Positions 8,650 to 49,735 of a stretch of 64,000 bases of DNA are shown piece by piece. The notes under the pieces are model-generated. The model was not told the DNA's origin. It searched no databases and saw only the letters and a program-made list of their open reading frames with translations. The first letter of the stretch is position 1. Each line of letters begins with the position of its first letter. Made by a program: the position numbers and the translations under genes. Source of the stretch: an uncultured Bacilli bacterium (GTDB taxonomy: Bacteria; Bacillota_I; Bacilli_A; RF39; UBA660); NCBI GenBank assembly GCA_910584085.1, contig CAJTZY010000006.1, forward strand, positions 668-64,667, given 5' to 3'.

Positions 8650-8992
8650 TTTTCTTATTCTCCTTTAAAGTTTCCACAACCAACATTGCCCTTTTAAAAT
8701 CCTCAACATCAAAATCTTGCCCTGCAATACTAATTCCTGCTTCTTGACATGCTATTTTAAGACGCTCTATTTTATCTAGATCATCTTGATTAAATCCTAA
8801 TAGGTAATCTGTTGTTACATTGAAATATTGTGCTAATTTGGTTAAAATATCATAACTTGGTTGAGCTTTGCCAACTTCCCATGCTGACACTGTAGAAAAT
8901 GTAACACCTAACATATCTGCCAATTCTGGTTGAGTAATTTTTTTTTCTTTACGCAATTCACGTAATCTATCTCCAAACAGATGAATCACCAT
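8642..8992 (-). CDS. CI-like XRE-family phage repressor
   Basis: HTH LRELRKEKKITQPELADMLGVTFSTVSAWEVGK. Divergent from the Cro-like gene. Confidence 0.8.
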   Translation of the reverse strand: MVIHLFGDRLRELRKEKKITQPELADMLGVTFSTVSAWEVGKAQPSYDILTKLAQYFNVTTDYLLGFNQDDLDKIERLKIACQEAGISIAGQDFDVEDFKRAMLVVETLKENKKNG

Positions 8993-9379: not shown

Positions 9380-9429
9380 TCACCACCTTTCTTTTTTGGA
9401 TTTCCCTTCAAAGAAAAGTGTGCTACACA
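9380..9429 (-). promoter_or_regulatory. TGTAGCAC/AAGGGAA hairpin element, copy G (minus strand)
   Basis: Minus strand reads TGTGTAGCACacttttctttgAAGGGAAAtccaaaaaagaaaGGTGGTGA. It is closely similar to copy E (49693-49730). Confidence 0.6.
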
Positions 9430-21162: not shown

Positions 21163-21182
21163 AATCAATTTGAATTTATGAA

Positions 21183-24672: not shown

Positions 24673-24673
24673 T

Positions 24674-25294: not shown

Positions 25295-25306
25295 TTTTAA
25301 TACCTC

Positions 25307-25588: not shown

Positions 25589-25592
25589 ACTA

Positions 25593-26235: not shown

Positions 26236-26246
26236 TTTTACACCTC

Positions 26247-36690: not shown

Positions 36691-36701
36691 AAATGTAAAA
36701 G

Positions 36702-36734
36702 TGTAGCACTCTCTTAAGGGAAATAGAGAGAGTG
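36702..36734 (+). promoter_or_regulatory. TGTAGCAC/AAGGGAA hairpin element, copy A (upstream of terL)
   Basis: TGTAGCACTCTCTtaAGGGAAAtAGAGAGAGTG. The 8-9-bp stem has a 3' arm that covers the SD, 5 nt before ATG 36740. Confidence 0.65.
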
Positions 36735-36739
36735 ATAAA

Positions 36740-38497
36740 ATGAGTTTAAAAATAGGCGAAAAGATAGAAATCAAAAAGCCACAAGAAAAAACGACCACTA
36801 TGTCACAGACTTTCTTTGATATAGTGGCTGTTTTAAAAAGTAATAAAGTTAGAGAAACGGATAAATTACAATGGTGTCAAAGTCTACTTGCAATATTAGA
36901 AAATTATTACAAAGAAAATGAACTAAAGTCAGTACAAAATGCTAAGAAGTATGCAATACCTGTGCTATATACTTTAACGGAGAAGAGTAGCATGGAAAAC
37001 ATGGCTCTCTTTTTTGATTATTATAAAAAAACATACTGTTTTTGTGCTAGAAGAGATTTTGAATGTTTTGTAGACTATATTGAATGGAATCAACCAAAGA
37101 AAGTATTAGCTAATCGCAGACAAGTATTAAAACCATACGTAGATGCTCTAAATAGAATAGCATTTGATGATAAATTACAATATATTATTGTTTCATATGC
37201 ACCCAGTATGGGTAAGAGTTACCTTGCAACATTATTTACAGCATGGGGATATGGTTTAAGTATAAATAATTCAGTAATCAGAATGTCATACTCTGACGAA
37301 CTCGTACTTGGTTTTAGTAGAACAGTAAAGGGTATTATATCAAGCCCTGAATTTGCGGAAATATTTCCTCTGTTTAAGTTGTATAATGGTAAACCGTTTG
37401 AAGTAGAAAGGGAATCAGACTGGAAAATAAAAAATGCCAATGTCCCTAAATCAAATCATATAGCACGTACCCGTAGTGGTTCTACTACTGGAGAAAGAGC
37501 CTCATTTGCAATTATATTTGACGATATGACAAAGGGAGCAGAGGAGGCTAATAGTGAGAGTATCCATAATGGAATATATGATAAATGGCTTACTGAATGG
37601 TGGAATAGACGTGATGGTCAAAAATGTAAATTTATATTTGTTGGAACTCAATGGACACCAGAAGATATATTGAATAGGGTTATAGAAGATAGAAACAAAG
37701 TATCGCCATTACAAGAAACGGATAATCCGTATGTTATGGAAAGTGAAGATAAATCAACTATAGTTATTCGTGTACCAATGTTAGATAAAGAACATAAAAC
37801 GACATGTCCCGAAGTATACCCACAAGAAATAGCAGAACAAATAGAACAAAATACAGATCCATTTCTATTTAGTTGCGTTTACCAACAAGATCCAATAGCA
37901 CTCACAGGGAGAGAATTAGCTTGGGAATGTTTACAAACATATATAGAACCACCAGAAGATTTAGAGTCATATTGTATGGCTGCTATCGACACTAAACGAA
38001 GAGGTAAAGATAATCTTAATATGTTTATATGTAAACCTGATGGGCATGGTAAACACTATTTATGGGATGCAATATTTACAAAAGAGCCTATGGATAAGTT
38101 ATATGATAAAATAATCGAAAAAATTATATTGCATCATATTACAACCTTAGTTATAGAAAACAATATTGATTTTTCATTAAAAACTTTATTAGAGGATAGA
38201 TTAAAGTTGAGAGGGATTTATTGGTGTAAAATTATAGAACATTATAATACACCTAAAAAAGAGAAAAGAATTATGGATATGTTGTGGCAAATACAAACAT
38301 TAATTATTTTCAAAGATAAATCTATTGTTAAACCAAATACTGATATAGGTAGGCTTATGGAAAATATTACAAAGTATTCATTTGATAAACCAAATGCTTT
38401 TGATGATGGACCTGATGGAAGTGCTTTATACGCTAGTGAAATAATAATGGGTAAGTCTGTATTACCAAAAGCGAAAGCTTGTCGTAGATTATTTTAG
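36740..38497 (+). CDS. terL: terminase large subunit
   Basis: 585 aa. Walker A-like SYAPSMGKSY and Walker B-like AIIFDDM, followed by a nuclease-sized C-terminal domain. Precedes the portal gene. Confidence 0.85.
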   Translation: MSLKIGEKIEIKKPQEKTTTMSQTFFDIVAVLKSNKVRETDKLQWCQSLLAILENYYKENELKSVQNAKKYAIPVLYTLTEKSSMENMALFFDYYKKTYCFCARRDFECFVDYIEWNQPKKVLANRRQVLKPYVDALNRIAFDDKLQYIIVSYAPSMGKSYLATLFTAWGYGLSINNSVIRMSYSDELVLGFSRTVKGIISSPEFAEIFPLFKLYNGKPFEVERESDWKIKNANVPKSNHIARTRSGSTTGERASFAIIFDDMTKGAEEANSESIHNGIYDKWLTEWWNRRDGQKCKFIFVGTQWTPEDILNRVIEDRNKVSPLQETDNPYVMESEDKSTIVIRVPMLDKEHKTTCPEVYPQEIAEQIEQNTDPFLFSCVYQQDPIALTGRELAWECLQTYIEPPEDLESYCMAAIDTKRRGKDNLNMFICKPDGHGKHYLWDAIFTKEPMDKLYDKIIEKIILHHITTLVIENNIDFSLKTLLEDRLKLRGIYWCKIIEHYNTPKKEKRIMDMLWQIQTLIIFKDKSIVKPNTDIGRLMENITKYSFDKPNAFDDGPDGSALYASEIIMGKSVLPKAKACRRLF

Positions 38498-38520
38498 ATA
38501 CTTATTAAGTATCTTTTTTT
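38496..38520 (+). terminator. Rho-independent terminator immediately after terL
   Basis: AGATACTT-att-AAGTATCT followed by T7. The stem starts inside the TAG stop codon. Confidence 0.6.
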
Positions 38521-38592
38521 GTGCAAAAAGGTGAATATTTGTTCTCCTTTTATACCTCAAACCTACCAATATTTCCATATATAGGATATAAA

Positions 38593-38640
38593 TGTAGCCG
38601 AAGGACAAGTTTTTTCCCTTAATAGTCCTTCAGTGCTACA
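38593..38640 (-). promoter_or_regulatory. TGTAGCAC/AAGGGAA element, copy F (consensus on the minus strand)
   Basis: Minus strand: TGTAGCACTgaaggactattAAGGGAAAAAacttgtccttcggctaca. The + strand therefore carries TGTAGCcGAAGGAC ... GTCCTTCaGTGCTACA with loop UUUUUCCCUU. Confidence 0.6.
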
Positions 38641-38726
38641 CGGGAGCATAACCGTAGAATTTATTTTATTGTTGTGTTCCCACATTTTATATTTTGGGAA
38701 TACCAAAGTATGAAAAGTGGTGAAAT

Positions 38727-40301
38727 ATGAAAAACGAAGAAGTAAAACCAACTGAAACAACAGTTGAAAATAATACAAATGCACAATTACCTACTAAAGA
38801 ACCTTATGCACCAAAATATGATGATACAAGGTTATATGGTAGAAAAATAATATATGCAGATTATGAGCCAGAAAATATGAATGCAGAAACAATAACAAAA
38901 ATATTAACTGATGTCTTTAGCATTCATTTGCAAAATTCAAGGGAAATAGATTATTTAGAAAAATATTATAAAGGATTTCAACCAATATTAAACAAAATAA
39001 AAGAAGTACGACCAACTATTAACAACAAAGTAGTTGAAAATAACGCTTATTTCTTAGTTGAGTTTAAAAAATCATTTGTATTTGGTAAACCAATTCAATA
39101 TGTGCAACGTGGAGATGTTGCAAATAAAGAGGTTGGAGCATTAAATAGTTATATGCTAGCAGAGGATAAATATCCTAAAGATACAGAACTAGCAGAAGAT
39201 TTATATATTGCTGGGATTGGACATAGATTAGTTCTTCCAGATATAAATGAAGATAGCCCATTTAGTATAGAAAATTTAGATAGCAAAACTACATTTATTG
39301 TTTATTCTAGTAGTTTACCACATAAAAAATTATTTGGTTGTACTTATACTAGAGGGATTAAAGATATAACAATAAAAGGTAGTATTTATACAAACAATGC
39401 TTTTTATAAATTTACAAGTGGAAGTCCATATAGTGCCTTTGATGTTCAATTTGTTAAATGGCACGTTTTAGGAGATATCCCAATATTTGAATACTTTTTA
39501 CATAAAAAAAGATTAGGAATTATCGAAGTCGTACTAGATTTGCTAAATGACATAAATAGAGTAACTTCTAATGAATTAGATGGGTTGGAACAATATGTAC
39601 AAAGTTTACTTGTATTTATAAATCAAGATATTGACAAAGAAGAATTAGAAAAAATGCTTGAAATGAATGCAGTAAAATTATGGTCTCCTGACCCTGGCAG
39701 AAATGCAGATTTAAAACTAATATCTAATGAAATAAATCATGCAAATACAAAAATCATGCACGATAAGTTATTTAACATGGCTTTAAATATTGTAGGAATA
39801 CCTAAAAATAGTGATAAAGCAAGTGGAGGAGATACAGGACAAGCTAGATATTTAGGTGAAGGTTGGACAATGGCAGATGCAAGAGCAGATGGCGATGAAA
39901 TGGAATTTAAACGTTGTTCTAAGCCTGAACTAAAAATGATACTTAGAATATGTAGACTTGCTCCAAATAGTGAAATAAATACATTAACACTTAAAGATAT
40001 AGACCAAAAATTCACTAGAAATAAATCAGATAATTTCTTAGTTAAATCACAAGGAATGATGAATCAAATTCAAAGTGGTGTATCACCTGATGTTGCAATG
40101 ACAACAAGTGGTTTATATAGTGATCCAAATGAAACATTTAATAAATCAATGGAGTTCTATGGTGGTATAGATAATTGGATTAAATTATTCGTTGGACAAG
40201 CACAAAAACAATTAAATGAAAAGAATAGCGATGGAAGTCCTAACAAGGCGACATCTGCCTCAAAAGATGAGTCTGGAGAGGTTAATAAACAAAAAAGTTA
40301 G
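38727..40301 (+). CDS. portal protein
   Basis: 524 aa, immediately after terL. Size and position are typical of SPP1-type portals. Confidence 0.75.
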   Translation: MKNEEVKPTETTVENNTNAQLPTKEPYAPKYDDTRLYGRKIIYADYEPENMNAETITKILTDVFSIHLQNSREIDYLEKYYKGFQPILNKIKEVRPTINNKVVENNAYFLVEFKKSFVFGKPIQYVQRGDVANKEVGALNSYMLAEDKYPKDTELAEDLYIAGIGHRLVLPDINEDSPFSIENLDSKTTFIVYSSSLPHKKLFGCTYTRGIKDITIKGSIYTNNAFYKFTSGSPYSAFDVQFVKWHVLGDIPIFEYFLHKKRLGIIEVVLDLLNDINRVTSNELDGLEQYVQSLLVFINQDIDKEELEKMLEMNAVKLWSPDPGRNADLKLISNEINHANTKIMHDKLFNMALNIVGIPKNSDKASGGDTGQARYLGEGWTMADARADGDEMEFKRCSKPELKMILRICRLAPNSEINTLTLKDIDQKFTRNKSDNFLVKSQGMMNQIQSGVSPDVAMTTSGLYSDPNETFNKSMEFYGGIDNWIKLFVGQAQKQLNEKNSDGSPNKATSASKDESGEVNKQKS

Positions 40302-40497
40302 AGGATAGAAAGACATTGACTATCGAGGCATGACGATGCTTAAGTGTAGGGAAACCGATTAGATGTGGGAAGTGATGCCCCACCTAACTTTATAGGGTTC
40401 ATAGGGTACGGGACTATGATTAAATACGCTCGAATATCTATTTAAAGATGTGTATTGGTAGCCCAGCCAAAGAAACTTTAGAAGCCTTTGGTCTTAT

Positions 40498-40573
40498 GCT
40501 GAAATAGCTCAATTGGTAGAGCAATTGTTTTGTAAGCAATAGGTTGTGAGTTCAAGTCTTACTTTCAGCACCA
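40498..40573 (+). tRNA. phage tRNA-Thr (anticodon UGU)
   Basis: GCTGAAA-TA-GCTC-aattggta-GAGC-A-ATTGT-TTTGTAA-GCAAT-aggtt-GTGAG-TTCAAGT-CTTAC-TTTCAGC-A-CCA. Confidence 0.85.
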
Positions 40574-40574
40574 T

Positions 40575-40667
40575 GTACGGTTACCCAAGTTTGGCTGAAG
40601 GGGACGATTTACTAAATCGTTAGGGTCCTGAGGGACCGCAAAGGTTCGAATCCTTTACCGTACGCCA
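40575..40667 (+). tRNA. phage type-II tRNA, Ser-like, anticodon ACU (A34)
   Basis: GTACGGT-TA-CCC ... GGG-G-ACGAT-TTACTAA-ATCGT, long variable arm GGTCC-tgag-GGACC, T arm AAAGG-TTCGAAT-CCTTT, acceptor ACCGTAC, discriminator G, CCA. Confidence 0.7.
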
Positions 40668-40898
40668 CAAATTTGATTATAGCTACCTTAATGGTAGTGT
40701 ACTGATGAAATGCATAAATATAGGTGCGACTCCTACGAAGGGTTAGAAGCCCTGCGATTTGTTAGAGTAACGAATTTCATTGGTACAGTGCTATTAAACT
40801 AGCATAAATTTGCTCTGTATACCGAGCATAATGGGTATACCACACTACTGTAGAGACGTGGCTACTATAAAAACGTAATGTGTGGGGAAGGTAATTAT

Positions 40899-41528
40899 AT
40901 GAATGAAATGATTGAAAATGTATTAAGTAATGAAGCTTATACAACAAATGAAGAAAGAGTAGAAGCTATTAAACAAGGTTTAGCGACTTTAGTTATTCCA
41001 AAAGATAAATACAATGATTTATCAACAAAACTAAAGAATACTGAAACAAGTTTAAGTACATTACAAACAGAATATGATGATTTCAAAAAATCCAAAATGA
41101 CAGAGGATGAATTAAGAGAATCTGAAAGAAAAGACTTAGAAGCAAAGCAAAAAAATATTGCTTTAAAAGAAAGTGAGTATGCAGTAAGAGATTTATTTAC
41201 AAATGCTAATATTTCAAAAGAAAAATACGAAAAAATATTAAGCAAAGTGGTAACATCTGATAAAGATAAATCTGTAGAAATTGCACAAACATTTATTGAA
41301 TTGTTAAGTGAAACTGCAGATGAAACAAAAAAGCAAACTGTAACAGATTTATTAAATGATACTCCAAAGCCTACTGTAAGCACTCCAAATAGTGGAACAG
41401 TAAGTAATTTAGATTCTTATAAAGCAAAATATGATGAAGCTGTCAAAAATGGAGATTTCTTAGCACAAACTCAATATATGAGATTAATGCAAGAAGAACA
41501 AATGAAACAAAATAAACCAAATGTTTAA
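40899..41528 (+). CDS. capsid scaffolding protein
   Basis: Lys/Glu-rich coiled-coil protein between the portal and major capsid genes. ATG 40899 (SD GGAAGG) is preferred over the track start 40878. Confidence 0.6.
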   Translation: MNEMIENVLSNEAYTTNEERVEAIKQGLATLVIPKDKYNDLSTKLKNTETSLSTLQTEYDDFKKSKMTEDELRESERKDLEAKQKNIALKESEYAVRDLFTNANISKEKYEKILSKVVTSDKDKSVEIAQTFIELLSETADETKKQTVTDLLNDTPKPTVSTPNSGTVSNLDSYKAKYDEAVKNGDFLAQTQYMRLMQEEQMKQNKPNV

Positions 41529-41534
41529 ATGAAA

Positions 41535-41577
41535 TGTAGCACTCATTAAAAGGGAATAGAAAAATTTTAATGAGGTG
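41535..41577 (+). promoter_or_regulatory. TGTAGCAC/AAGGGAA hairpin element, copy B (upstream of major capsid gene)
   Basis: TGTAGCACTCATTAAAAgggaatagaaaaaTTTTAATGAGgTG. 12-bp stem with one bulged G. The 3' arm contains the SD GAGGTG. Confidence 0.65.
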
Positions 41578-41582
41578 ATAGT

Positions 41583-42629
41583 ATGAATGGAACTGAAACA
41601 GTTCAAAGTTTTAACACATTAAATTATGCTGGATTGTTATATACAAAATCAAATAAGAAAACTCCTTTCTTAAATATGATTTCAGGACACAGAAAATATA
41701 CAAATTCAGTAGAATTTATTACAGGACAATTTTATGAAAATGAAGATGCAGAAATACCAGCAATTAGTGAAACAGCATCATTAACAGCACCAACTGCGTC
41801 ATTCGTAACAAGAAGTCAAAAAACTAATGTTACACAAATCTTTATGGAATCAGTAGCTATTAGTTATGCAAAACAATCTAATATGGGAACATTAAGTGGC
41901 GTAAATATTGCTGGACAAGTTGCAAATCCACAAAATGAATTAGATTTCCAAGTTGCAAGAAAAATGGAAACATTATCAAGAAGTATTGAAAAAACATTTA
42001 TTCAAGGAACTTATAATAAAGCAACATCTGATTCAACAGTTAACAAGACAAGAGGTATGAACGAAGCAATTACTACTAATGTTATTTCAGCAGAAAGTGG
42101 TAGTGGTGCTAGTAAGGTTAATAAACCACTTGATATTTGGTTAATCAATGATGCACAACAAGCAATCTATGATAATCAAGGTGATATTAGTAATTTATAT
42201 TTATGGACTAATACAGTTGGTTTAAATCAATTAAATGCAGATGCCTTAAAATGGGGTATGAAAATGGGAGAACCATATATGAGTTCATACGGTGTACAAG
42301 TATATGATGTAATCTTACCATTAGGTGTAGTACACGTTGCATTAGGTGAATTTATTCCAAGTGGAACAGCATTCTTATTCAATTTTGATGTAATTGGACC
42401 AGTAGAACAACCAGTACCAGGTAAAGGTAATTTCTTCTTAGAAGAATTAGCTAAACAAGGTGCAGGAACTAAATATCAATTATTTGGACAAATTGGATTA
42501 GACCACGGTCCAGAATGGATGCACGCTAAAATCACAGGATTAAAAACTACATTTGATAAACCAGAAGCAGTTAAGGATGTAAAAGTTGTTAATGCTAGTG
42601 ATTTAAAAGCAACAGCACCAAGTGCTTAA
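41583..42629 (+). CDS. major capsid protein
   Basis: 348 aa, directly after the scaffold gene. Assignment by position and size. Confidence 0.7.
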   Translation: MNGTETVQSFNTLNYAGLLYTKSNKKTPFLNMISGHRKYTNSVEFITGQFYENEDAEIPAISETASLTAPTASFVTRSQKTNVTQIFMESVAISYAKQSNMGTLSGVNIAGQVANPQNELDFQVARKMETLSRSIEKTFIQGTYNKATSDSTVNKTRGMNEAITTNVISAESGSGASKVNKPLDIWLINDAQQAIYDNQGDISNLYLWTNTVGLNQLNADALKWGMKMGEPYMSSYGVQVYDVILPLGVVHVALGEFIPSGTAFLFNFDVIGPVEQPVPGKGNFFLEELAKQGAGTKYQLFGQIGLDHGPEWMHAKITGLKTTFDKPEAVKDVKVVNASDLKATAPSA

Positions 42630-42660
42630 TAAAATCTTTTTAAAGTAAGGAAGTGTATTT

Positions 42661-43002
42661 ATGAGTCAAAAAGACCAACTATTAAAAATGCGACTAGAAA
42701 TCTTAGGCGATGTAGCTGATGACACAAAAGATGAAGTGTTTAAAATAAAACTAGATGACGCAGAAGTTGTGGCTCTAAATACACTTTATCCTTATGATTA
42801 TGAACAAAAAGAATTAGACAAAACAAACAAACGATTAATGAATTGGCAAGCAAGATGTGCAATAGAACTGTATAAGAAAATGGGAACTACTAATGTTAAA
42901 TCATATTGTGAGGATAGTTTTTCTGTTACTTATATGACAGGTTTAATATCATCATCACTTATGAATGAATTAAGACCACCAAAGGCAGGCATTCCTAAAT
43001 GA
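42661..43002 (+). CDS. head-tail connector/adaptor protein (putative)
   Basis: Position after the capsid gene. N-terminal LLKMRLEILGDVADDTKDEV resembles gp6-like connector proteins. Confidence 0.5.
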   Translation: MSQKDQLLKMRLEILGDVADDTKDEVFKIKLDDAEVVALNTLYPYDYEQKELDKTNKRLMNWQARCAIELYKKMGTTNVKSYCEDSFSVTYMTGLISSSLMNELRPPKAGIPK

Positions 43003-43376
43003 TAACTGAAATAAATGCAGATCCAAGTAATTGGAAAAAAGATGTCTATATAGCAAGCAAAAAAGAAGTTACTTTAGATGATGAAGGCAACGAAATTGTT
43101 ATATATGACAAACCAAGAAAATTTAGATTCAATTATCAATCAATCAGTTCTAATTCAAATATTGCCGAATTTGGAGAAAACTCCAAAATGATGAAAAAAG
43201 CAGTTATTCCTATATCATATCAAGGACAATTTAAAGAATTTGATGTGGCTTATCTTGACGGTGCAACACCAGAAGGAGAAGAGAATTATGGAGATAATGC
43301 AAACTATAGATTATTACCACCAAGAGATGGTAATTCAGTTATAATTATATATTTTGAAAGACTTACAGGAAAGTAG
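42999..43376 (+). CDS. head closure protein (putative)
   Basis: Assigned by synteny only. Confidence 0.4.
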   Translation: MITEINADPSNWKKDVYIASKKEVTLDDEGNEIVIYDKPRKFRFNYQSISSNSNIAEFGENSKMMKKAVIPISYQGQFKEFDVAYLDGATPEGEENYGDNANYRLLPPRDGNSVIIIYFERLTGK

Positions 43377-43383
43377 GTGCGAT

Positions 43384-43590
43384 ATGTACGAATTTACAAA
43401 TGGAATAGTAGTATTTGATGAAAAAACAAGAGATAGATATATTGAGGCAGGATATAGACTTATTGAGAAAAAAATAGAAACAAAATCTCAAGAACACCCT
43501 GTTGAAATCAACGAGGAGTTAAATGAAAACACTTTTAACAATGGAACTATCAAAAGACAGTCTAAAAAATACAATAAACTATCTAAATAA
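43384..43590 (+). CDS. hypothetical phage protein
   Basis: ATG 43384 after AGGTG. Overlaps the next gene by 68 nt, so one of the two starts is uncertain. Confidence 0.35.
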   Translation: MYEFTNGIVVFDEKTRDRYIEAGYRLIEKKIETKSQEHPVEINEELNENTFNNGTIKRQSKKYNKLSK

Positions 43591-44032
43591 GTTCAAAAGT
43601 GCTTATGAAAAAGGCATAGATAATGCTGTGCTTCATGCAACAGAAATAATGTATGAAAAAGTAAAGCAATATTGCTATGAGGCAGGTATTACTGAACATA
43701 CCAATAATATTTATATGGAGTATGATTATAATACCAAAACTGGTAAAGTTGGTACATCTGATATGGTACTTATCTTTAATGAGATGGGGACAGGTATTAC
43801 TGGTGCTAATAATCCACATCCTAATCCATCACCAAATTTCCAATCATGGAAATATGATGTAAATGAACATGGTGAAAAAGGTTGGTATTATCCAAAAGAA
43901 GATGGTACTTATGGTTGGACTAAAGGTTTACCTAGTAGGCATATGTTCTATGATGCCTTCAATGATATTAAAGATGAAATTGGAGATATTGTAGAAGTTG
44001 AATTGCGAAAGACAGTAGGTGATTTATATTGA
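43523..44032 (+). CDS. neck/tail-joining protein (HK97 gp10-like, putative)
   Basis: SD GAGGAG. Assigned by synteny. Confidence 0.4.
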   Translation: MKTLLTMELSKDSLKNTINYLNKFKSAYEKGIDNAVLHATEIMYEKVKQYCYEAGITEHTNNIYMEYDYNTKTGKVGTSDMVLIFNEMGTGITGANNPHPNPSPNFQSWKYDVNEHGEKGWYYPKEDGTYGWTKGLPSRHMFYDAFNDIKDEIGDIVEVELRKTVGDLY

Positions 44033-44472
44033 TAGTAGAAAATTTATTTGATACAAAGTTCTATCCAGAACAAAAACAATATGTTGAAACTAAATCAATA
44101 TATAAACCACATGTAACAAAAGCAATGCCACAGAACAGTAAAGACTTCCCAATAGTACCAACAAAATTATTGCCTGTAAAAAATCAATATGGCAATTTGA
44201 GTTATGGTGAAGAAAGATATTCATTTGGTATTGAGATTAATGTATATGCACAAGACGATACTATCAATGGCAAAAAAGTATCTAAAAGGACTATTTGTAA
44301 TGAAATAACAAGCCATGTAGTTGATTATTACAAGACTAATTATAGAGTTACTGTTAAGACAACTTTAGATGCTCCAAATGTAGACAGTAATGTACATAGA
44401 AATATTATAAGAATAACTGGTGTCTTAGACACAAAATATGGATTAGATAACTTGGTTATTTATCCAAATTAA
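44029..44472 (+). CDS. tail completion/terminator protein (putative)
   Basis: Assigned by synteny only. Confidence 0.35.
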   Translation: MIVENLFDTKFYPEQKQYVETKSIYKPHVTKAMPQNSKDFPIVPTKLLPVKNQYGNLSYGEERYSFGIEINVYAQDDTINGKKVSKRTICNEITSHVVDYYKTNYRVTVKTTLDAPNVDSNVHRNIIRITGVLDTKYGLDNLVIYPN

Positions 44473-44477
44473 AATGA

Positions 44478-44521
44478 TGTAGCACTTCAAATATAAAGGG
44501 GAAAAATTTATATGAGAGGTG
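44478..44521 (+). promoter_or_regulatory. TGTAGCAC/AAGGGAA hairpin element, copy C (upstream of major tail gene)
   Basis: TGTAGCACTTCAAATATAAAggggaaaaATTTATATGAGAGGTG. 6 bp plus 7 bp around a 2-nt internal mismatch. The 3' arm ends in the SD GAGGTG. Confidence 0.6.
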
Positions 44522-44528
44522 AAAGAAA

Positions 44529-44990
44529 ATGAACGAAACAGATGCAAAAGGATTACTAGATTTAGGCGTTGAAATACGTATCAAAAATCATGGAGAAGCA
44601 AAATATCCAAAAGAACCATTAGCAGGCGTAACATCAATACCAGCTACTGGACAAGCAGGTGGAACTATAGATGTAACAACATTTAGTGACCCTGTAAAAG
44701 TATATATTCCAGATAGACCAGATACTGGAGATATGGATTATGAATATATTTATACATTAATAAAATATAACGCAGTTAAAGCATATTGCGATAACACAGC
44801 AAAAGATATATTAATTAAATATCCAGAAGGTGATGGTGCTGAATATACAGGTATTTGTCAAACATGGAGAAATGAAAAATCTGTTGGTAGTGATGCATTA
44901 AAAGCTACATTACATACAGTGCCAAGTACATTAATTGTTGATAAAACAAAAGATGAAGTATCAGCATTAATATCAACAACAGCTGAATAA
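44529..44990 (+). CDS. major tail (tube) protein
   Basis: 153 aa, upstream of the chaperone pair and tape measure. Confidence 0.55.
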   Translation: MNETDAKGLLDLGVEIRIKNHGEAKYPKEPLAGVTSIPATGQAGGTIDVTTFSDPVKVYIPDRPDTGDMDYEYIYTLIKYNAVKAYCDNTAKDILIKYPEGDGAEYTGICQTWRNEKSVGSDALKATLHTVPSTLIVDKTKDEVSALISTTAE

Positions 44991-45009
44991 AAGAAAGTAG
45001 GGAAAATAA

Positions 45010-45345
45010 ATGAGAAAATTAAAATTAAAAATCAATGATAAAGATTATACTCTAGAAATGAATAGGGATACAATTAAATGGCTAGAAAATTATGATTTTT
45101 CCTTAGAAGAATTTATAAAGAAGCCAGTAACATATTATGATTTGCTATGGACTAGTTTATTTTTGGTAAATCATCAAGATGTAAATCCAAATTTAGCAAT
45201 GAAGTTGATGGAAACCTATGGTGAAAACCATAAAGTTGCTAAAGTTATTAATTTTGCTATAGAAGAATACAAAACTTTTATGAATGCCCTATCCGATATA
45301 AACTCAGAGAAGAGCGACGAGGAACTAGAGATAATCGAAGCATAG
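45010..45345 (+). CDS. tail assembly chaperone (G-like)
   Basis: Position immediately upstream of the tape measure gene. Confidence 0.55.
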   Translation: MRKLKLKINDKDYTLEMNRDTIKWLENYDFSLEEFIKKPVTYYDLLWTSLFLVNHQDVNPNLAMKLMETYGENHKVAKVINFAIEEYKTFMNALSDINSEKSDEELEIIEA

Positions 45346-45395
45346 ATGAAGAACAAGGCAAAAAATATAAGAACTTAACAGATTGGTTTTATGAT

Positions 45396-45776
45396 TTGTT
45401 GCCTATGGCGATAACATACGGTATGTCTGTGAAAGAGTTTTGGGAAGATGACCCTAACTTATTCTGGGCATACCGTTTTTCTTATTATGAACGATTAAAA
45501 ACGCAACAAGAAATATTTAATAATAATGCATGGCTTCAAGGAGCATATTTTCATGAAGCAGTTTCTGTAGCATTATGCAATGCTTTTAGTAAAACAAAAG
45601 TAGAATACTCAAAGCATCCTTATGGATTTAATGAAAATAAGGCTATTACAGAGGAAGAAAAGCAAAAAGTAGTGCAATCATATGCTAGTGAAATAAAAGC
45701 TCGTATATCGCAAGTAAATGCTATCAGGAATGGGGCAGAACAACAAGTAGTAATAAAAGGAAAAAGTAGAGTGTAG
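45396..45776 (+). CDS. second tail-chaperone ORF (T-like)
   Basis: Its reading frame (-1 relative to 45010-45345) is open from 45252. The mode of expression is unresolved. Confidence 0.4.
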   Translation: MLPMAITYGMSVKEFWEDDPNLFWAYRFSYYERLKTQQEIFNNNAWLQGAYFHEAVSVALCNAFSKTKVEYSKHPYGFNENKAITEEEKQKVVQSYASEIKARISQVNAIRNGAEQQVVIKGKSRV

Positions 45777-45816
45777 CACTTACCTAAAAGGGAAAATTTA
45801 CCAATAAAGGTAGGTG
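45772..45816 (+). promoter_or_regulatory. TGTAGCAC/AAGGGAA hairpin element, copy D (upstream of tape measure gene)
   Basis: TGTAGCACTTACCTaaaagggaaaatttaccaataaAGGTAGGTG. 9-bp stem with one G-U pair. The TAG inside the motif is the stop codon of the upstream ORF. Confidence 0.6.
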
Positions 45817-45822
45817 AAATAA

Positions 45823-48800
45823 ATGAATGAACAAACAATAGAAATGCAGATACGTGCTAAAGCACAAGAAGCATTACAAAGTTTAAATAAATTAACAAGT
45901 CAATTAACAGGTGTTGAAAAGAAAATTGATGGTGTCAAAACAACAATCGACAAAGTATCGACAACTAAAGCAAGAAATGAAATGAATAGTTTAAATAGTT
46001 CCATCGAAAAAGCATCAAAAAGTATGGAAAAATTTAAAAATTTATTCACGTTTGTTGGTGCTAAAAGATTAACAAAAACAGCATTAGGTTGGATGAATGA
46101 AGCAATAGATTATACAGAACAATTAAACTTATTTAATGTAGTATTTAAAAATATAGAAAAAAATGGTACCACAATGTATTCTAATCTTGGAAAAGAAGCA
46201 GTAAAATATCAAAATAAACTAAACGAAGCATTTGGTACAAATAAAACTCAATCATTATATACACAAGCAATTTATCAATCAATGGCTGAAAATCAAGGTA
46301 TTAGTGATTATTATTCAAAAATCATGTCTGAAACAATGACCAATTTTACGTATGATTTAGCATCTTTATATAATAAAAGTGATAAAACAACAGCAGAAGC
46401 CTTAAGAGCAAGCGTCTTTGCTGGAATGACAAAACCTGCTAGAAATTACGGTTTGGATGTTACACAACAATCAATGCAGCCAATATTAACAGAATTAGGC
46501 ATAGATAAACAAGTAAAAGAATTATCTCAAGGTGAGAAAATGATATTGAGATATATTACTGTATTAAAACAAGGACAGGTTGCTATGGCGGACTTTGCAT
46601 CTACCGTTGAATCTCCTTCAAACCAATTAAAAATATTTAGACAACAATTAGTAGAGGCTAAAGTAGCAATGTCATCATTATTTATAGGTGGACTAGCTAA
46701 TATATTACCATATGCAAACGCATTCTTAATGGTAGTAAAAGAAGTATCAAAAGCAATAGCTGATATGTTTGGTATCAAATTGGTTGACTACAACAGTGGT
46801 ATTGCAAGTCAAGAAGATGCCTTTGTCGATTTAGGTGACAGTGTAGATGATGCAATAGGTAAAGTAAAAGAACTAAAAAGACAAACACTTGGATTTGATG
46901 AAATTCACAATATTAATGAAAACAAGGATAGTGGAAGTGGGACAAGCATATCAGGTGGAATAGACCAACGATTATTAGATGCAATTAAAGGCTATGACAA
47001 TGGTATGGATAAAGTAAGAATGAAAGCTACAGAAATAAGAGATAGAATTATGGAATGGCTAGGTTTTACAAAAGAAATAGACCCATTAACGGGTGAAATT
47101 GGATTTAAATATCAAGGCATGAAAACAACATTAAAAAATGTTTGGACAAGTTTTAAAAATTTGAATACACAAGGAAAGATATTAGTCGGATTAGGATTAG
47201 TAACTGGTGCATTAAAATTATGGAATGCTGGTAAGAAACTAACTACGGTATTAGGAAGTACTGGTTTAGTTAAAGTTATTAAAAATTTAATTACTCCATT
47301 TAAAAACTTAACAGAGTATACAAGAGTTTATACATCAATAACAGGAACTTTAAAAGATGGCATAATTGGTGGAATAGATGCTTGGAGAAAGCAAAGCGGA
47401 ATAATATCAGAAACTACGGGTAAATTTACTGGATGGACAAGTATAGTAAATGGTGGAAAAATTGCTCTTGAAGGGCTTGTTACAGCAGGATTAGGTTTAT
47501 ATACAGTACATGAATCAATGAAAAATTTATCAACAGAGGGATTTAATCTTGCAAATGCACTTGGCTTAGTTGGTGGTAGTATAACAACTATAGCAAGTGG
47601 TGTACAAATAGGTGCTATATTTGGACCGTGGGGTGCAGCCATAGGTGGTGCGGTAGGTGCTGTAGCAGATTTGATTAGTATATTGGATGGGTATGAAACA
47701 CAATCAGAAAAAACAAGAAATGAAATAAATAAAACTATTGATAAAACAAAAGCATATTCAGAATCCTTGATAGAACAACACAATAATATTGATGAAGAAT
47801 TACAAAAACAAACAGCATTATCAAATGCACATCAAAATTTATTAAATGAATTGCAAGAAATAACAGATGCTAATGGGAGAATTAAGGTTGGATATGAAGA
47901 ACGAGCAAGTTTTATTGTTACAACATTAAATAATGCATATGGAACTGAGATTAAAATAGTAGATAACGTTATTCAAAAATATGATGAACAAATATCAAAA
48001 ATAAAAAGTTTAATAGATGAAAAAAAGAAAGAACTTTATTTGTCTAAAGCAGAGGAATCATACAATTTGGCAATTGAGAAAAGAGCAGAAACATATGAAA
48101 ATTTAAAAGAAGCAAATGATGCTTATTTAAAATCTTTGAAAGCTCAAACTGATATGGAAGAAAAGTATAGAAAGCAATGGGAAAAAATACCTAGTTTAAT
48201 AAAATCGTGGTATGGTTCATTTGAAAGATATCTTGATAAAGAGTCAAAAGCGGTAAATGATGATTATTATAAACTTGTAGAAACAGCTAACAAAGCGAAG
48301 ATAAATCTGGATGAAGCAACATCTGCATATGATTCAAATACAAAAGCAATAATGAATTATAATGGATTATTATCTGCAGATACAGAGGAAAATTCAGAAC
48401 TTATCAATTACTATATGAATGAAATTGATAAAAGATATAATGAATCTGAAAATAATATAAAAGATACTTATTCAAAACAATTAGAAGATGCCAAAGAATA
48501 TTATGAATCAGTTATTAGAATATCAGGTGAAAGTGAATCCTCAATGAGCGAAACAACACGTGCTGAAGCAGAGTCAAGATATAATTCAGTAATTTCAGCT
48601 TTAAAAAATGAACTTAATTATATTAATGGAACTACAGACGAAACAGCACAAGCTTGGTATACATTATCCAAATCAAGTAAAGATAAGTTTTTAGAGAATT
48701 TTAATCAATTACCAGAAGATATACAACAACAAGTAATAGATAAGATGTATTCTAAAGGATATTCAATAAGTCAAGAATTACAAAATGGTATAAATGCTAA

Positions 48801-49227
48801 AATACCAACAATAAAGTTTAATATAGATACAAGTAGTTTATCAAGTTTCTTAAAAACTGGTTTTAACCAACAACTTAGTTGGTTAGGGATAAATACTAAA
48901 GCGAATGGCGGTGTATTCTCAAATGGTTCATGGAAAAATATCCCACAATATGCAAATGGTGGGATTCCATCACACGGTTCAATGTTTGTTGCAGGCGAAC
49001 ATGGTGCTGAAATAGTAGGACATATTAATGGCAAAACGGAAGTATTAAACCAATCACAAATAGCAAATGCAATTTATAATGCTATAGTAAGTGCAATGAG
49101 TCAGTATAGTGGACAAACTAGTGAAATTGATGTCCATGTACATACTGATGAAGGAACAGTAATCGATAGAATTGAACAAAGGACAAAGCAAACTGGGCAA
49201 TTTCCATTTACTATTCCAACATATTAA
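45823..49227 (+). CDS. tail tape measure protein
   Basis: 1134 aa. Long coiled-coil regions plus a Gly-rich hydrophobic stretch GAIFGPWGAAIGGAVGAVADL. Confidence 0.85.
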   Translation: MNEQTIEMQIRAKAQEALQSLNKLTSQLTGVEKKIDGVKTTIDKVSTTKARNEMNSLNSSIEKASKSMEKFKNLFTFVGAKRLTKTALGWMNEAIDYTEQLNLFNVVFKNIEKNGTTMYSNLGKEAVKYQNKLNEAFGTNKTQSLYTQAIYQSMAENQGISDYYSKIMSETMTNFTYDLASLYNKSDKTTAEALRASVFAGMTKPARNYGLDVTQQSMQPILTELGIDKQVKELSQGEKMILRYITVLKQGQVAMADFASTVESPSNQLKIFRQQLVEAKVAMSSLFIGGLANILPYANAFLMVVKEVSKAIADMFGIKLVDYNSGIASQEDAFVDLGDSVDDAIGKVKELKRQTLGFDEIHNINENKDSGSGTSISGGIDQRLLDAIKGYDNGMDKVRMKATEIRDRIMEWLGFTKEIDPLTGEIGFKYQGMKTTLKNVWTSFKNLNTQGKILVGLGLVTGALKLWNAGKKLTTVLGSTGLVKVIKNLITPFKNLTEYTRVYTSITGTLKDGIIGGIDAWRKQSGIISETTGKFTGWTSIVNGGKIALEGLVTAGLGLYTVHESMKNLSTEGFNLANALGLVGGSITTIASGVQIGAIFGPWGAAIGGAVGAVADLISILDGYETQSEKTRNEINKTIDKTKAYSESLIEQHNNIDEELQKQTALSNAHQNLLNELQEITDANGRIKVGYEERASFIVTTLNNAYGTEIKIVDNVIQKYDEQISKIKSLIDEKKKELYLSKAEESYNLAIEKRAETYENLKEANDAYLKSLKAQTDMEEKYRKQWEKIPSLIKSWYGSFERYLDKESKAVNDDYYKLVETANKAKINLDEATSAYDSNTKAIMNYNGLLSADTEENSELINYYMNEIDKRYNESENNIKDTYSKQLEDAKEYYESVIRISGESESSMSETTRAEAESRYNSVISALKNELNYINGTTDETAQAWYTLSKSSKDKFLENFNQLPEDIQQQVIDKMYSKGYSISQELQNGINAKIPTIKFNIDTSSLSSFLKTGFNQQLSWLGINTKANGGVFSNGSWKNIPQYANGGIPSHGSMFVAGEHGAEIVGHINGKTEVLNQSQIANAIYNAIVSAMSQYSGQTSEIDVHVHTDEGTVIDRIEQRTKQTGQFPFTIPTY

Positions 49228-49230
49228 AAT

Positions 49231-49650
49231 TTAATTATTGTTTTGTAATTCTTTACAATTCCAATTATTAGCTTCCAATTCTGCAATTTTATCATAATAA
49301 TTATAATTTGGTTTTAAATTTTTGTACCCTATATCAACAGTAGTATTACTTCTATGAACAGAACATTCAACACCATCAATAACATTATTACACTTTTCCT
49401 TTTGTATAGATTCCTTTTCTATAGCATCTGATAAAGAATCGTAAGTATTTGAAAGTAGTGAAAAATCCTCAATAATATTATAGTTATCATCATAATAAAA
49501 TTCCCAAATTATTAATTTATTAGTTGAACTAATAGAACAAGATGTATATTTATTTGTTATTTTTCCCTCTTCTTCTTTTTCTTTTCTATTTTCACATCCA
49601 CATAAGCATAAACAACATAATCCAATTAATAAAATTTTCTTCATAAACAA
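49231..49650 (-). CDS. lipoprotein encoded antisense within the tail module (moron)
   Basis: Signal peptide and lipobox MFMKKILLIGLCCLCLCGC. It is the only minus-strand gene between 27.8 and 56.9 kb. Confidence 0.65.
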   Translation of the reverse strand: MFMKKILLIGLCCLCLCGCENRKEKEEEGKITNKYTSCSISSTNKLIIWEFYYDDNYNIIEDFSLLSNTYDSLSDAIEKESIQKEKCNNVIDGVECSVHRSNTTVDIGYKNLKPNYNYYDKIAELEANNWNCKELQNNN

Positions 49651-49692
49651 TCTCCTTATCTACTTAAAGTATATCAAAAAATATAAAAAATG

Positions 49693-49730
49693 TGTAGCAC
49701 TTTCTTTCAAAGGGAAATTGAAAGATGGTG
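49693..49730 (+). promoter_or_regulatory. TGTAGCAC/AAGGGAA hairpin element, copy E (upstream of distal tail gene)
   Basis: TGTAGCACTTTCTTTCAAagggaaaTTGAAAGATGGTG. 13 positions with one mismatch and one G-U pair. The 3' arm holds the SD GGTG. Confidence 0.65.
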
Positions 49731-49735
49731 AAGTT

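Follow-up and report, generated by a model that had tools for sequence, protein, structure and literature searches.

Ribosome-site-masking hairpins before late genes of a gut Bacilli siphophage, and an inverted copy in the portal leader that may pair with them

Introduction

Several late genes of a prophage from an uncultured Bacilli bacterium are preceded by the same composite element, a short invariant box followed by a hairpin with a conserved loop, and its recurrence raises the question of what the element does and, if it hides the ribosome site as the original prediction proposed, what would open it. The window (the whole stretch of 64,000 nucleotides analysed here) holds a temperate siphophage of roughly 50 kb from a low-GC gut Bacilli host. 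The identities of the SU10-type major capsid protein, terL, the major tail protein and the tape measure were confirmed as previously named, but the label "distal tail" given to 49736-50179 rests on gene position only, its product matching phrog_1194, a family without known function.

Results

Six M elements in the window

The pattern TAGCAC-N3-25-ARGGGRA has 7 matches in the window, compared with 0.06 expected (0 of 100 shuffles reach 7). Two of them lie on the minus strand, at 9427..9402 and 38638..38614, and bring the five copies described previously to the seven that had been mentioned in passing. A covariance model trained on 53 related copies and run against the window recovered six full copies (35-52 bits, E <= 4e-6), the next-best match scoring 14.5 bits. 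We call a full copy an M element. The five already described before late genes are all present, with their box, CAC(T) hairpin, loop motif and Shine-Dalgarno-bearing 3' arm, and the sixth lies on the minus strand before a small ORF of the immunity region:

36702..36736, plus strand: M element A, before terL (ATG 36740); 41.8 bits, -12 kcal/mol, z -4.6; box UGUAGCACU, 9-bp stem CACUCUCUU/AGAGAGAGUG, loop AAGGGAAAU.., Shine-Dalgarno GAGUGA inside the 3' arm
41535..41579, plus strand: M element B, before the major capsid gene (ATG 41583); 35.1 bits, z -3.7; starts 6 nt past the stop codon of the ORF upstream
44478..44523, plus strand: M element C, before the major tail protein gene (ATG 44529); 47.2 bits, z -5.95; loop variant AAAGGGGAAAAA
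45772..45818, plus strand: M element D, before the tape measure gene (ATG 45823); 44.3 bits, z -4.75; the TAG of its box (45774-45776) is the stop codon of ORF 45396-45776
49693..49732, plus strand: M element E, before the first gene past the tape measure (ATG 49736); 52.5 bits, z -3.2; an antisense ORF, 49650..49231, lies upstream
9382..9427, minus strand: M element F, box UGUAGCACA, in an immunity-region 5' leader about 45 nt past a TTGACT-17-TACAAT promoter; 39.8 bits, z -4.0; the small ORF behind it (TTG 9374 or 9359 to TAA 9279) is conserved in loci L177-L181

In a further locus, L184, an F-type element precedes a different ORF, of 32 codons.

The invariant box TGTAGCACT is present in all five late-gene copies, and the hairpin begins at its CAC(T). 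The 5' side of the loop is occupied by AAGGGAA or AAGGGGAA, and the 3' arm terminates in (A/G)GTG, with that GTG 5-8 nt ahead of the ATG. In the computed folds the CACU of the invariant box, (U)GUAGCACU, is paired with the GGUG of the Shine-Dalgarno, which is thus buried as proposed, and the loop shows the invariant (A)AGGGAA. The first two box positions are variable in many M copies (AA, AG, GT), leaving only a 3-nt unpaired toehold, which counts against an opening by strand displacement as proposed below.

M elements are hairpins of the mRNA strand

M elements are mRNA-strand hairpins that mask the Shine-Dalgarno. The six window copies fold at z = -3.2 to -6.0, with 0 of 200 shuffles folding equally well, and in 70 of 73 distinct copies the sense fold is stabler than the fold of the reverse complement, the difference averaging -3.7 kcal/mol. 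Across these 73 copies G·U pairs number 90 and A·C 1x1 mismatches zero, a strand-specific pattern that bears out the RNA-level structure suggested before. Stem sequences vary by site and by phage yet complementarity is kept, and in the model-fitted alignment 89 cells have both sides changed, compared with 45 in shuffles (0 of 500 reach 89). The original prediction had proposed a covariance model and a search of related phages, and the pairing is indeed preserved among relatives. No model of Rfam 15, C4 included, matched the region 36500-50000 even at E <= 10, in agreement with the view that the motif lies outside the described families.

The original prediction had also noted a TAAAAT-like hexamer 1-7 nt upstream and suggested that the elements could mark late transcription starts. 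A late promoter or initiator would make TGTAGCACT a DNA signal read by a phage-specific sigma factor, activator or polymerase, and each late RNA would begin with the hairpin. Such a role would suit the location of the elements before the first genes of functional modules, like T7 class III promoters, the conserved terminator after terL, which implies multiple late transcription units, and the TATAAC/TATAAA-like hexamer often found 3 nt ahead of the box in E-type copies. However, the upstream hexamer proved unconserved: among 81 distinct copies neither a position-fixed -10 nor T-A-n-n-n-T at a fixed distance was found, the region being merely A-rich, and a sigma-70 scan was unenriched (92 sites versus 126 expected). 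Nor was a sigma factor or RNA polymerase found among the subset of ORFs scanned. Elements B-D start at most 6 nt past the stop codon of the preceding ORF, D overlapping that stop and hence translated sequence, and F sits inside a leader, downstream of its canonical promoter. Since the variable spacing between box and AAGGGAA, the strand-specific G·U pairs and the loop conservation are also RNA-level traits, we regard a promoter role as very improbable.

One clade carries the family

The M family is limited to one clade of ~50 kb siphophages, found in gut Bacilli MAGs of low GC content, whose element-bearing members span capsid proteins just 63% identical. All 12 related prophage loci that cover the terL-portal spacer have one inverted copy, described below, plus at least two M copies, with up to five M copies in the DNA examined for one locus. 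Ten loci at the same capsid-protein distance (L131, L132, L135, L137, L139-L143 and L170) have neither M nor inverted copy, and these element-free relatives use plain AGGAG leaders.

This distribution bears on the possibility that the hairpin acts only in cis, masking the Shine-Dalgarno for translational coupling and perhaps also stabilising the mRNA at its 5' end or at a processing site, and thereby setting half-life and stoichiometry, with the loop AAGGG as a standby or STAB-SD site. In A-D the preceding ORF ends at most 11 nt upstream of the box, or within it in D, and a terminating ribosome would melt the CAC:GUG base. The Firmicute 16S rRNA tail carries the anti-Shine-Dalgarno CCUUU, with which the loop AAAGGG could pair, and GGUGA is the common Shine-Dalgarno of the window phage. 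Against this, E and F have no same-strand ORF terminating nearby, coupling or stability needs no invariant UGUAG or loop heptamer across such diverged phages, and equally related phages do with plain leaders. A purely cis-acting role, which also leaves unexplained why the portal leader keeps one conserved complementary copy, therefore seems rather unlikely.

An inverted copy in the portal leader

The seventh pattern match lies in the terL-portal spacer. It exists as a match, as previously counted, but it is not an ordinary copy: the evidence below suggests that it behaves as plus-strand RNA, inverted relative to the M elements, a new finding that was absent from the earlier reading. The spacer contains the following features:

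38497-38520, plus strand: terminator after terL, read from the sequence
38525-38553, both strands: bidirectional terminator, in tandem with the preceding one
38587..38592, plus strand: -10-like hexamer TATAAA, 7 nt before hairpin 1, the predicted portal promoter
38600..38631, plus strand: anti-element hairpin 1 (GAAGGAC...GUCCUUC), reverse complement of the seventh pattern match
38614-38620, plus strand: UUCCCUU, within the loop of hairpin 1, complementing the M loop motif AAGGGAA
38632..38640, plus strand: anti-box AGUGCUACA, the linker of hairpins 1 and 2 and exact complement of the M box UGUAGCACU
38642..38681, plus strand: hairpin 2 of the portal leader, GGGAGCAUAAC / GUUGUGUUCCC
38680..38723, plus strand: hairpin 3, in which CCAC is paired to the GUGG within the portal Shine-Dalgarno (GUGGUGA, 38717-38723); GGGAA in the loop at 38696-38700

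The putative tandem terminators (38497..38553) part the terL transcript from the portal leader, and the portal transcript is predicted to start at about G38600, so that the portal mRNA would begin with the inverted copy, immediately behind a conserved -10 box. In each of 39 distinct loci a TAnnnn stands 6 nt ahead of the G that opens hairpin 1 (the gap in the window itself is 7 nt), as TATAAA or as TGnTACTTG, TAAATC, TACTAG, TAGATA or TATACC, often in the form TGnTAnnnn and independently of the intervening sequence. The anti-box is conserved among 36 distinct loci, and the whole portal leader folds at z -6.2. Hairpin 3 resembles the masking hairpin of an M element but lacks the UGUAGCAC box; an AU-rich hairpin precedes the portal Shine-Dalgarno in most of 16 lineages, with a GGGAA/GGAAU loop and CC:GG closure in many of them, not all.

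The strand on which the inverted copy acts can be read from its non-Watson-Crick pairs, of which 54 are G·U on the plus strand and 11 on the minus strand; internal plus-strand G·U cases come from at least five independent lineages (in tandem in L335) and minus-strand cases from one. RNAalifold found five covarying pairs in the inverted hairpin, which 10 of 16 lineages close with G·U, and the plus strand is the stabler in 14 of 18 distinct copies; in the window's own copy the minus strand is slightly stabler (-19.9 versus -17.0 kcal/mol). In hairpin 2 one pair is G·U in 16 of 16 lineages and a second is U·G in 11 and U-A in 5, and both wobble pairs would read A·C on the minus strand. The invariance of 'TTACGGTTATGCTCCCG' on the minus strand is thus due to plus-strand hairpin 2.

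These data also bear on a protein operator, in which a phage or host RNA-binding protein would read the box and the AAGGGAA loop to repress, activate or stabilise the mRNAs, in the way of Mu Com, T4 RegA or an RNA-phage coat protein, and minus-strand transcription of the inverted copy would supply a small decoy RNA to titrate that protein, by the logic of CsrB/CsrA. Read on the minus strand, the spacer keeps the full M order (box, arm, 5'-side AAGGGAA loop, arm) and then meets a terminator-capable hairpin, which is bidirectional in most phages and good on the minus strand only in L025, so there may be a minus-strand small RNA with a same-sense copy. Furthermore several small genes (33205-33426, 32998-33204 and 35072-35503) are confined to element-positive phages, and such an operator too predicts the box and loop covariation between inverted and M copies in L123/L124 and L134. 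In at least five lineages, however, the inverted hairpin would have minus-strand A·C mismatches where the plus strand has G·U, and the conserved 5' flank is accounted for by the plus-strand helix, not by a minus-strand promoter. UGUAG is unpaired and CACU paired in M elements and the reverse holds in the inverted copy, so that a single protein would need to recognise both contexts; the spacing from box to loop motif is inconstant, at 6 to 12 nt across M copies; and the clade-specific proteins look like helix-turn-helix DNA-binding proteins rather than RNA binders, the product of 33205-33426 being a 73-aa LexA-type winged helix. Such an operator also does not predict the excess of A-to-G over G-to-A changes, and we consider it unlikely.

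Complementarity between M elements and the inverted copy

Complementarity by itself is not evidence of pairing, because every inverted duplicate is complementary by construction; the evidential weight lies only in the conservation, strand signature and promoter signal of the inverted copy. The box duplex has 9 bp (-13.5 kcal/mol) and the loop duplexes 8-13 bp (-10 to -14 kcal/mol), and loop-loop and box-box pairing around two intact stems cannot both form without special geometry. RNAcofold, which is unable to model kissing loops, pairs the box of all six M leaders with the AGUGCUACA linker (-7.8 to -11.1 kcal/mol compared with the monomers), leaving the Shine-Dalgarno wholly or partly unpaired (leader A keeps part of it paired). 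The five late M leaders rank 1, 2, 4, 5 and 6 in predicted binding among 61 leaders, with a modest margin over background, the unrelated leader 14805 scoring -9.1.

When M copies are compared with the inverted copy of their own phage, box transitions comprise 8 wobble-compatible and 0 A·C cases, and the loop core about 9 and about 3, respectively. In the L123/L124 lineage the inverted copy has altered to TATAGCAC and AAGGAAA, and the M copies match it in 3 of 4 boxes and 2 of 4 loops, the unchanged ones still being able to pair via G·U. Exceptions with A·C occur in L122, L319 and the L063 tape-measure copy, and the trans-covariation is supported by few independent events.

Discussion

The explanation we tentatively prefer, and hold to be quite possible, is that an antisense segment of the portal leader base-pairs with M leaders and so frees their ribosome sites, in the manner of a toehold switch. 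Each phage would carry a single complementary module at the 5' end of the portal mRNA, a UUCCCUU-loop hairpin followed by the single-stranded AGUGCUACA, and this RNA would meet most M leaders in trans, and perhaps in cis any that share its transcript. Recognition would begin through loop-loop contact; pairing of AGUGCUACA with UGUAGCACU would then nucleate at the unpaired (U)GUAG toehold; and CACU would be displaced from the Shine-Dalgarno, exposing the ribosome site so that translation begins, although pairing may instead lead to repression or cleavage. Such a switch would explain why two short blocks are invariant while stem sequence, length and spacing vary, why each phage combines several direct copies with a single inverted one, and why direct and inverted copies are present or absent jointly. 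The original prediction had envisaged a phage factor or helicase as the opener; since the inverted plus-strand copy holds the complement of both boxes, the likeliest opener would be a phage RNA. The three roles listed in that prediction (operator, protein-binding site, and stabiliser or processing signal) are kept as less likely rivals. If so, the sequences suggest that one viral RNA would turn on several structural genes together.

Relationship to known systems

Anti-antisense activation by small RNAs is exemplified by DsrA and RprA acting on rpoS. The IsrK RNA of prophage Gifsy-1 likewise activates translation of a phage regulatory gene by an anti-antisense mechanism (PMC4825925). As in the switch proposed here, an inhibitory leader hides the ribosome site until a trans-acting RNA pairs with its 5' side and renders it translatable. 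In contrast to IsrK, DsrA and RprA, the present system would have six or more dispersed targets, mostly structural genes, and a bipartite recognition (loop plus flank), its predicted regulator is the start of the portal mRNA instead of a free-standing small RNA, and it has no sequence or Rfam relationship to them.

The c4 antisense RNA of phages P1/P7 (Rfam C4) and the CI RNA of phage P4 control immunity by repression, through translation block or termination. They too are phage RNAs encoded close to their targets, in which two short exposed segments pair with repeated mRNA sites overlapping the ribosome-binding site, and they leave the same genomic signature of direct copies plus one complementary copy. 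They repress immunity genes, however, whereas here late structural genes are the targets and unmasking is predicted; the host lineage also differs, and the Rfam C4 model gave no match, as noted above.

The Mu com-mom hairpin, the coat-protein operator of RNA phages and the T4 RegA sites are translational operators that sequester the Shine-Dalgarno, and like M elements they place a hairpin containing the ribosome-binding site, with conserved loop nucleotides, just upstream of a phage gene. These are single protein-bound sites, while M elements are repeated, each with a conserved unpaired 5' box, and are matched by a complementary RNA.

Synthetic toehold switches are opened by a trigger RNA complementary to a toehold and the 5' arm, and share with M elements a single-stranded 5' toehold followed by a hairpin that hides the ribosome-binding site. 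M elements are natural, however, their toehold is short (3-5 nt), their Shine-Dalgarno lies at the base of the 3' arm and not in the loop, and they have additional loop-loop complementarity. Finally, lambda-type nut sites (boxA + boxB), which are present singly in each early operon and target RNA polymerase via N/Nus proteins, resemble M elements in having a conserved single-stranded box and then a variable-stem hairpin with a conserved purine-rich loop, but nut sites are far from ribosome sites, whereas M elements abut start codons and pair with the Shine-Dalgarno.

The phage and its relatives

A single temperate siphophage occupies the window from ~6.7 kb to 57 kb (G+C of the window ~25%); we treat it as one phage because homologues of its cI repressor share ~50 kb viral contigs with the late-gene elements. 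It carries replication genes, a ROOL RNA, tRNAs, late genes for terL, an SPP1-type portal, an SU10-type capsid protein, a major tail protein and a tape measure, a CHAP lysin, and the following landmarks:

7838..6741, minus strand: tyrosine integrase
8992..8642, minus strand: cI-like repressor, with a cro-like gene divergent from it
50188-53523: tail fibre of 1111 aa in which collagen repeats are combined with a type I dockerin domain and, at the C terminus, an S74 intramolecular chaperone domain

The best genome match is a 1.2 Mb circular MAG labelled 'Bacilli bacterium', whose capsid protein is 98% identical, and other relatives come from gut MAGs assigned to Bacilli, Tenericutes or Clostridium. 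No GenBank phage matched the late region by megablast.

A clade-restricted family of hairpins that mask the Shine-Dalgarno

The original prediction described a composite hairpin in the leaders of five late genes (terL, capsid, major tail, tape measure and the next gene; M elements A-E), and the positions and anatomy of all five were reproduced here. It also spoke of seven copies, and the pattern TAGCAC-N3-25-ARGGGRA indeed occurs seven times in the window against 0.06 expected, the two extra matches lying on the minus strand (9427..9402 and 38638..38614). A covariance model built from 53 distinct copies separated these, recognising exactly six full M elements, namely the five already reported and copy F at 9427..9382, with scores of 35-52 bits and the next match at 14.5. 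The seventh, in the spacer between terL and the portal gene, is a different object, a single complementary copy that we call the inverted copy.

We collected related loci by scanning viral contigs for the pattern and genomes for the capsid protein, and the model gave 118 hits in 80 of them and none in the element-negative relatives. Carrier phages have low-GC hosts (<= 0.32) and capsid proteins that may be as little as 63% identical; the DNA examined per locus contains as many as five direct copies, which occupy homologous sites (terL, capsid, major tail, tape measure, next gene), and a single inverted copy in the terL-portal spacer. Relatives that are just as distant (L131, L132, L135, L137, L139-L143 and L170) have no copy and use short AGGAG leaders instead. 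The M family is thus restricted to one clade. A metagenome scan with ACGGTTATGCTCCC gave one true locus among the 120 matches listed, the others being chance matches. Across copies (U/A)(G/A)U(A/G)GCACU (the box) and (A)AGGGAA (the loop motif) are invariant, while arm sequence, arm length (5-12 nt) and loop length vary.

That the motif lies outside described families was borne out by Rfam, which matched none of the copies (cmscan, run over the whole window with the gathering threshold and over 36500-50000 and 9000-9700 with E <= 10); no curated family, including C4 antisense RNA, preQ1, other small riboswitches and RNA thermometers, overlaps the seven copies or the portal leader. Literature searches with the motif sequence gave primers and unrelated matches only, and keyword searches gave no close phage counterpart.

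Several results agree with the earlier view that the conserved feature is an RNA structure, formed on the mRNA strand. The window copies fold much better than shuffled sequences (z -3.2 to -6.0), and 70 of 73 distinct copies are more stable than their reverse complements, by a mean of -3.7 kcal/mol. G·U pairs number 90 in these stems, which have no A·C 1x1 mismatch. Stems differ from site to site (CUCUCU/AGAGAG, CAUUAAAA/UUUUAAUG, UUCUUUC/GAAAGA, UACC/GGUA) and, as had been proposed, pairing is kept as they drift from phage to phage. Since arm lengths differ, column-wise pairing tests are weakened and a MAFFT column alignment is reliable for the outer six pairs only, so we relied on per-copy folding and a model-fitted alignment. 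In the latter 75.8% of cells pair, compared with 71.8% in shuffles, and 89 cells changed on both sides, compared with 45 (neither value was reached in 500 shuffles); sliding the partners cut pairing to 59% or less.

The Shine-Dalgarno sits in the 3' arm as predicted, its (A/G)GUG pairing with CAC(U) at the stem base 5-8 nt before the start codon, and GGUGA is this phage's usual, and the window's commonest, Shine-Dalgarno. By structure and by the position of the ribosome site, the M elements fit the translational-operator class of cis-regulatory hairpins that sequester the Shine-Dalgarno, with a predicted effect on translation. Two other uses of this sequence were dropped: a mini-ORF that would take the GUG of the Shine-Dalgarno as its start codon and run across the ATG, which works in A and B and not in C, and a 'split Shine-Dalgarno' joined by the stem, whose halves lie at opposite stem ends.

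M elements are not promoters

The suggestion that the elements also mark late transcription starts was not supported. Upstream of 81 distinct M copies there is only an A-rich tract, with no T-A-n-n-n-T at a fixed distance, and a consensus scan for sigma-70-type promoters showed no enrichment. The M elements are therefore not promoters of this type; sigma-54, sigma-B or T7-like promoters were rejected because the spacing varies from 6 to 15 nt, and N4-type DNA hairpin promoters because the transcript would lack the ribosome site.

Elements B-D begin no more than 6 nt past the preceding stop codon and A begins 11 nt past it. This arrangement fits translational coupling purely in cis, in which the hairpins at A-D would need no partner in trans; E and F however do not fit, and such coupling leaves the invariant boxes and the complementary copy unaccounted for. 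The TAG of the box is the stop codon of the preceding ORF in copy D and in that copy only, and the idea of a general stop-codon role was dropped.

Copy F, with a TTGACT-17-TACAAT promoter ~45 nt upstream, precedes a conserved small ORF of 26-31 codons (9279-9374, minus strand; ..EILFSNDINVKIRDLSLIKINVTRK). It lies ~400 nt from cI, on the upstream side, and cI has a promoter of its own. The small ORF is retained in L177-L181, and in L184 the element stands before an unrelated 32-codon ORF (MKSGLITLIKAMFNGFAINTGDISFNKIIIKK). Because copy F precedes an immunity-region ORF, the element is not strictly 'late'. A satellite (PICI) origin of copy F was discarded, since cI homologues occur on the same ~50 kb contigs as the late elements.

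The inverted copy is conserved as part of a predicted portal mRNA leader

Read on the minus strand, the inverted copy resembles an M element that lacks a Shine-Dalgarno and is preceded by an invariant TTACGGTTATGCTCCCG. Its stem points to the other strand: pairs that are A·C on the minus and G·U on the plus strand prevail by 54 versus 11 in 31 distinct copies. Internal plus-strand G·U pairs occur in L004, L121, the L136 lineage, L317 and L332, with a tandem pair in L335, and the opposite in one case. The plus strand is the more stable in 14 of 18 distinct inverted copies, and RNAalifold on 16 lineages gives an 8-bp hairpin with five covarying pairs and a closing G·U in 10. The invariant upstream sequence corresponds to the 5' arm of a plus-strand helix, GGGAGCAUAAC/GUUGUGUUCCC, in which one pair is G·U in all 16 lineages and another is U·G (11) or U-A (5). 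Judged from these patterns, the signature of selection on the inverted copy is on the plus strand, where the following parts were delineated:

38497-38553: tandem terminator hairpins after terL, the first plus-strand only (GATACTTA..TAAGTATC then a T run), the second bidirectional
38614-38620, plus strand: loop UUCCCUU of hairpin 1, at the predicted 5' end of the portal mRNA
38632-38640, plus strand: linker AGUGCUACA after hairpin 1, predicted to be single-stranded
after linker AGUGCUACA, plus strand: hairpin 2 of the predicted leader fold
38680-38723, plus strand: hairpin 3, predicted to mask the portal's own Shine-Dalgarno, with GGGAA in its loop

Relatives carry the second terminator only, and this conserved terminator would keep the portal unit apart from terL transcription. 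Unlike the M elements, hairpin 1 has a TAnnnn hexamer at a fixed distance, 6 nt upstream of its first G in 39 of 39 distinct loci (7 nt in the window), whatever the bases between. The hexamer is mostly TATAAA, and lineages with a weaker one have TGnTACTTG, TGnTAAATC, TGnTACTAG, TGnTAGATA or TGnTATACC, that is, an extended -10. We infer a portal promoter with its transcript starting at about G38600.

The whole leader folds with z -6.2. Hairpin 3, in which CCAC pairs with the GUGG of the Shine-Dalgarno GUGGUGA, has a long stem rich in A and U, and most of the 16 lineages are predicted to form an AU-rich hairpin upstream of the portal Shine-Dalgarno. Because hairpin 2 shares the 5' CCC of hairpin 3, each might form in place of the other, as in a switch. 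The loop of hairpin 3 is complementary to the UUCCC of hairpin 1, and in the predicted fold the portal Shine-Dalgarno also takes up part of the linker. A 9-nt identity between hairpin 2 and 16S rRNA helix 45 (UAACCGUAG) may be chance, and mimicry was dropped.

A possible rival reading places the activity on the minus strand, where a small RNA from the inverted copy would act as a decoy for a protein that binds the M elements. Such an RNA is conceivable because the terminator is bidirectional and, in L025, works on the minus strand only. Candidate protein partners exist among small genes found only in element-positive phages, although these element-specific proteins look DNA-binding:

32998-33426 and 35072-35503: three small genes, found in 0 of 9 element-negative relatives

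They encode a 68-aa protein (in 9 of 13 element-positive loci), a neighbouring 73-aa LexA-type winged-helix protein (11 of 13) and a 143-aa HTH_3 protein (10 of 13), and may be regulators or mere clade markers. A CsrA/RsmA-type system would have GGA in hairpin loops and over the Shine-Dalgarno, a CsrA-family protein and a decoy RNA with many sites. GGGA is present in the M loops; the inverted copy has one site and favours the other strand, and no CsrA-like protein was found among the ORFs scanned.

The portal leader is complementary to the M leaders

The invariant M blocks are exact complements of blocks in the portal leader, UUCCCUU facing AAGGGAA and AGUGCUACA facing UGUAGCACU, and this complementarity is maintained across 36 distinct inverted copies and 118 M hits. 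The box duplex would have 9 bp (-13.5 kcal/mol) and the loop duplexes 8-13 bp (-10 to -14 kcal/mol). RNAcofold predicted a heterodimer for all six M leaders, with the box on the AGUGCUACA linker, a gain of -7.8 to -11.1 kcal/mol, and the M stem base opened so that the Shine-Dalgarno was wholly or partly free (A keeps part of it paired). By predicted binding the five late M leaders ranked 1, 2, 4, 5 and 6 of 61 leaders; we used leader cofolding here because duplexfold on long windows gave an uninformative background.

In the rare places where M copies differ from the inverted copy of their own phage, the direction is one that fits pairing: changes run A-to-G or C-to-U with the wobble kept (8:0 for the box, ~9:3 for the loop core, few of these events being independent), despite the A+T mutational bias. 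In L123/L124, one co-varying lineage, the inverted copy now reads UAUAGCAC and AAGGAAA; of the four M copies, three show the corresponding change in the box and two in the loop, and those without it are still wobble-compatible. There are three A·C exceptions (L122, L319 and L063).

These predictions suggest that a module at the 5' end of the portal mRNA, the UUCCCUU hairpin with the AGUGCUACA linker, might pair with the loop and box of the M leaders. Pairing of box and linker would open the M stem base and free the Shine-Dalgarno, the most likely outcome being translational activation by unmasking; repression or guided cleavage may result instead. With hairpins of -9 to -14 kcal/mol, the M genes would be silent by default. 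Such RNA-RNA pairing would account for the single inverted copy per phage and the joint gain or loss of both components, and for blocks frozen while stems and spacing drift, as many targets would share one partner. We give this reading of the M elements and the portal leader about an even chance of being right. Its fullest form is a natural multi-target 'toehold switch' regulon, in which the portal-mRNA module would unmask six or more dispersed leader hairpins and so license translation of the packaging, head, tail and baseplate modules and of the small immunity-region ORF; we put this forward tentatively and consider it somewhat doubtful.

For temperate phages of Firmicutes, the usual description of late-gene control is a single transcriptional activator working at a single promoter. 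In this phage several modules of structural genes would each have their own translational lock, and there is apparently just one RNA key. If true, this would be among the rare examples of phage morphogenesis controlled through RNA-RNA interaction, with an mRNA leader regulating other mRNAs, and a natural counterpart to engineered toehold switches, which the M elements and portal leader formally resemble. The antisense systems P1 c4 and P4 CI, with their repeated target sites, are among the functionally closest. So is anti-antisense activation, as by the prophage RNA IsrK (PMC4825925). We rate the kind of regulation as known and the RNA motif family as new. Even read conservatively, it is an easily recognised family without an Rfam match that can improve the annotation of phages from uncultured, small-genome gut Bacilli, and with its 9-nt and 7-nt boxes it offers a compact, directly testable system. 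We know of no genetics for these hosts.

Other features of the phage

An SPFH/Band-7 family gene (289 aa, 35821-36690) directly upstream of terL is probably a moron, since it occurs in only three of 13 related loci. What looks like a moron within the late operon is an antisense ORF of 137-139 aa (49231-49650, minus strand) with its own AAGGAG ribosome site. It separates the tape measure from the next tail gene, and the two stop codons are only 3 nt apart; related phages likewise have the start of an antisense gene just upstream of element E.

The plus-strand early region is broken by a minus-strand block of seven ORFs (23490-26792), which may be an inserted cassette or an invertase system, containing a 261-aa resolvase-type serine recombinase (24275..23490). 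M elements as its recombination sites were dropped, the shared sequence being too short and without a dyad.

A tRNA-Met (19011-19087) is followed by a full-length ROOL RNA (19096-19736, 172.7 bits), within which AGTAGCAC (19446) was rejected as a further copy because no hairpin or loop motif follows it. After the ROOL RNA come ~1.5 kb without an ORF of at least 70 aa, with the highest G+C of the window (0.33), ending in a sub-threshold tRNA-like match (21068-21159); this part of region 19011-21230 may represent further structured RNA. Between the portal and scaffold genes, a 580-nt gap (40294-40880) contains a skipping-rope RNA (40294-40391), a tRNA-Thr (40498-40573), an unusual 93-nt tRNA-Ser with anticodon ACU (40575-40667) and a further ~200 non-coding nt.
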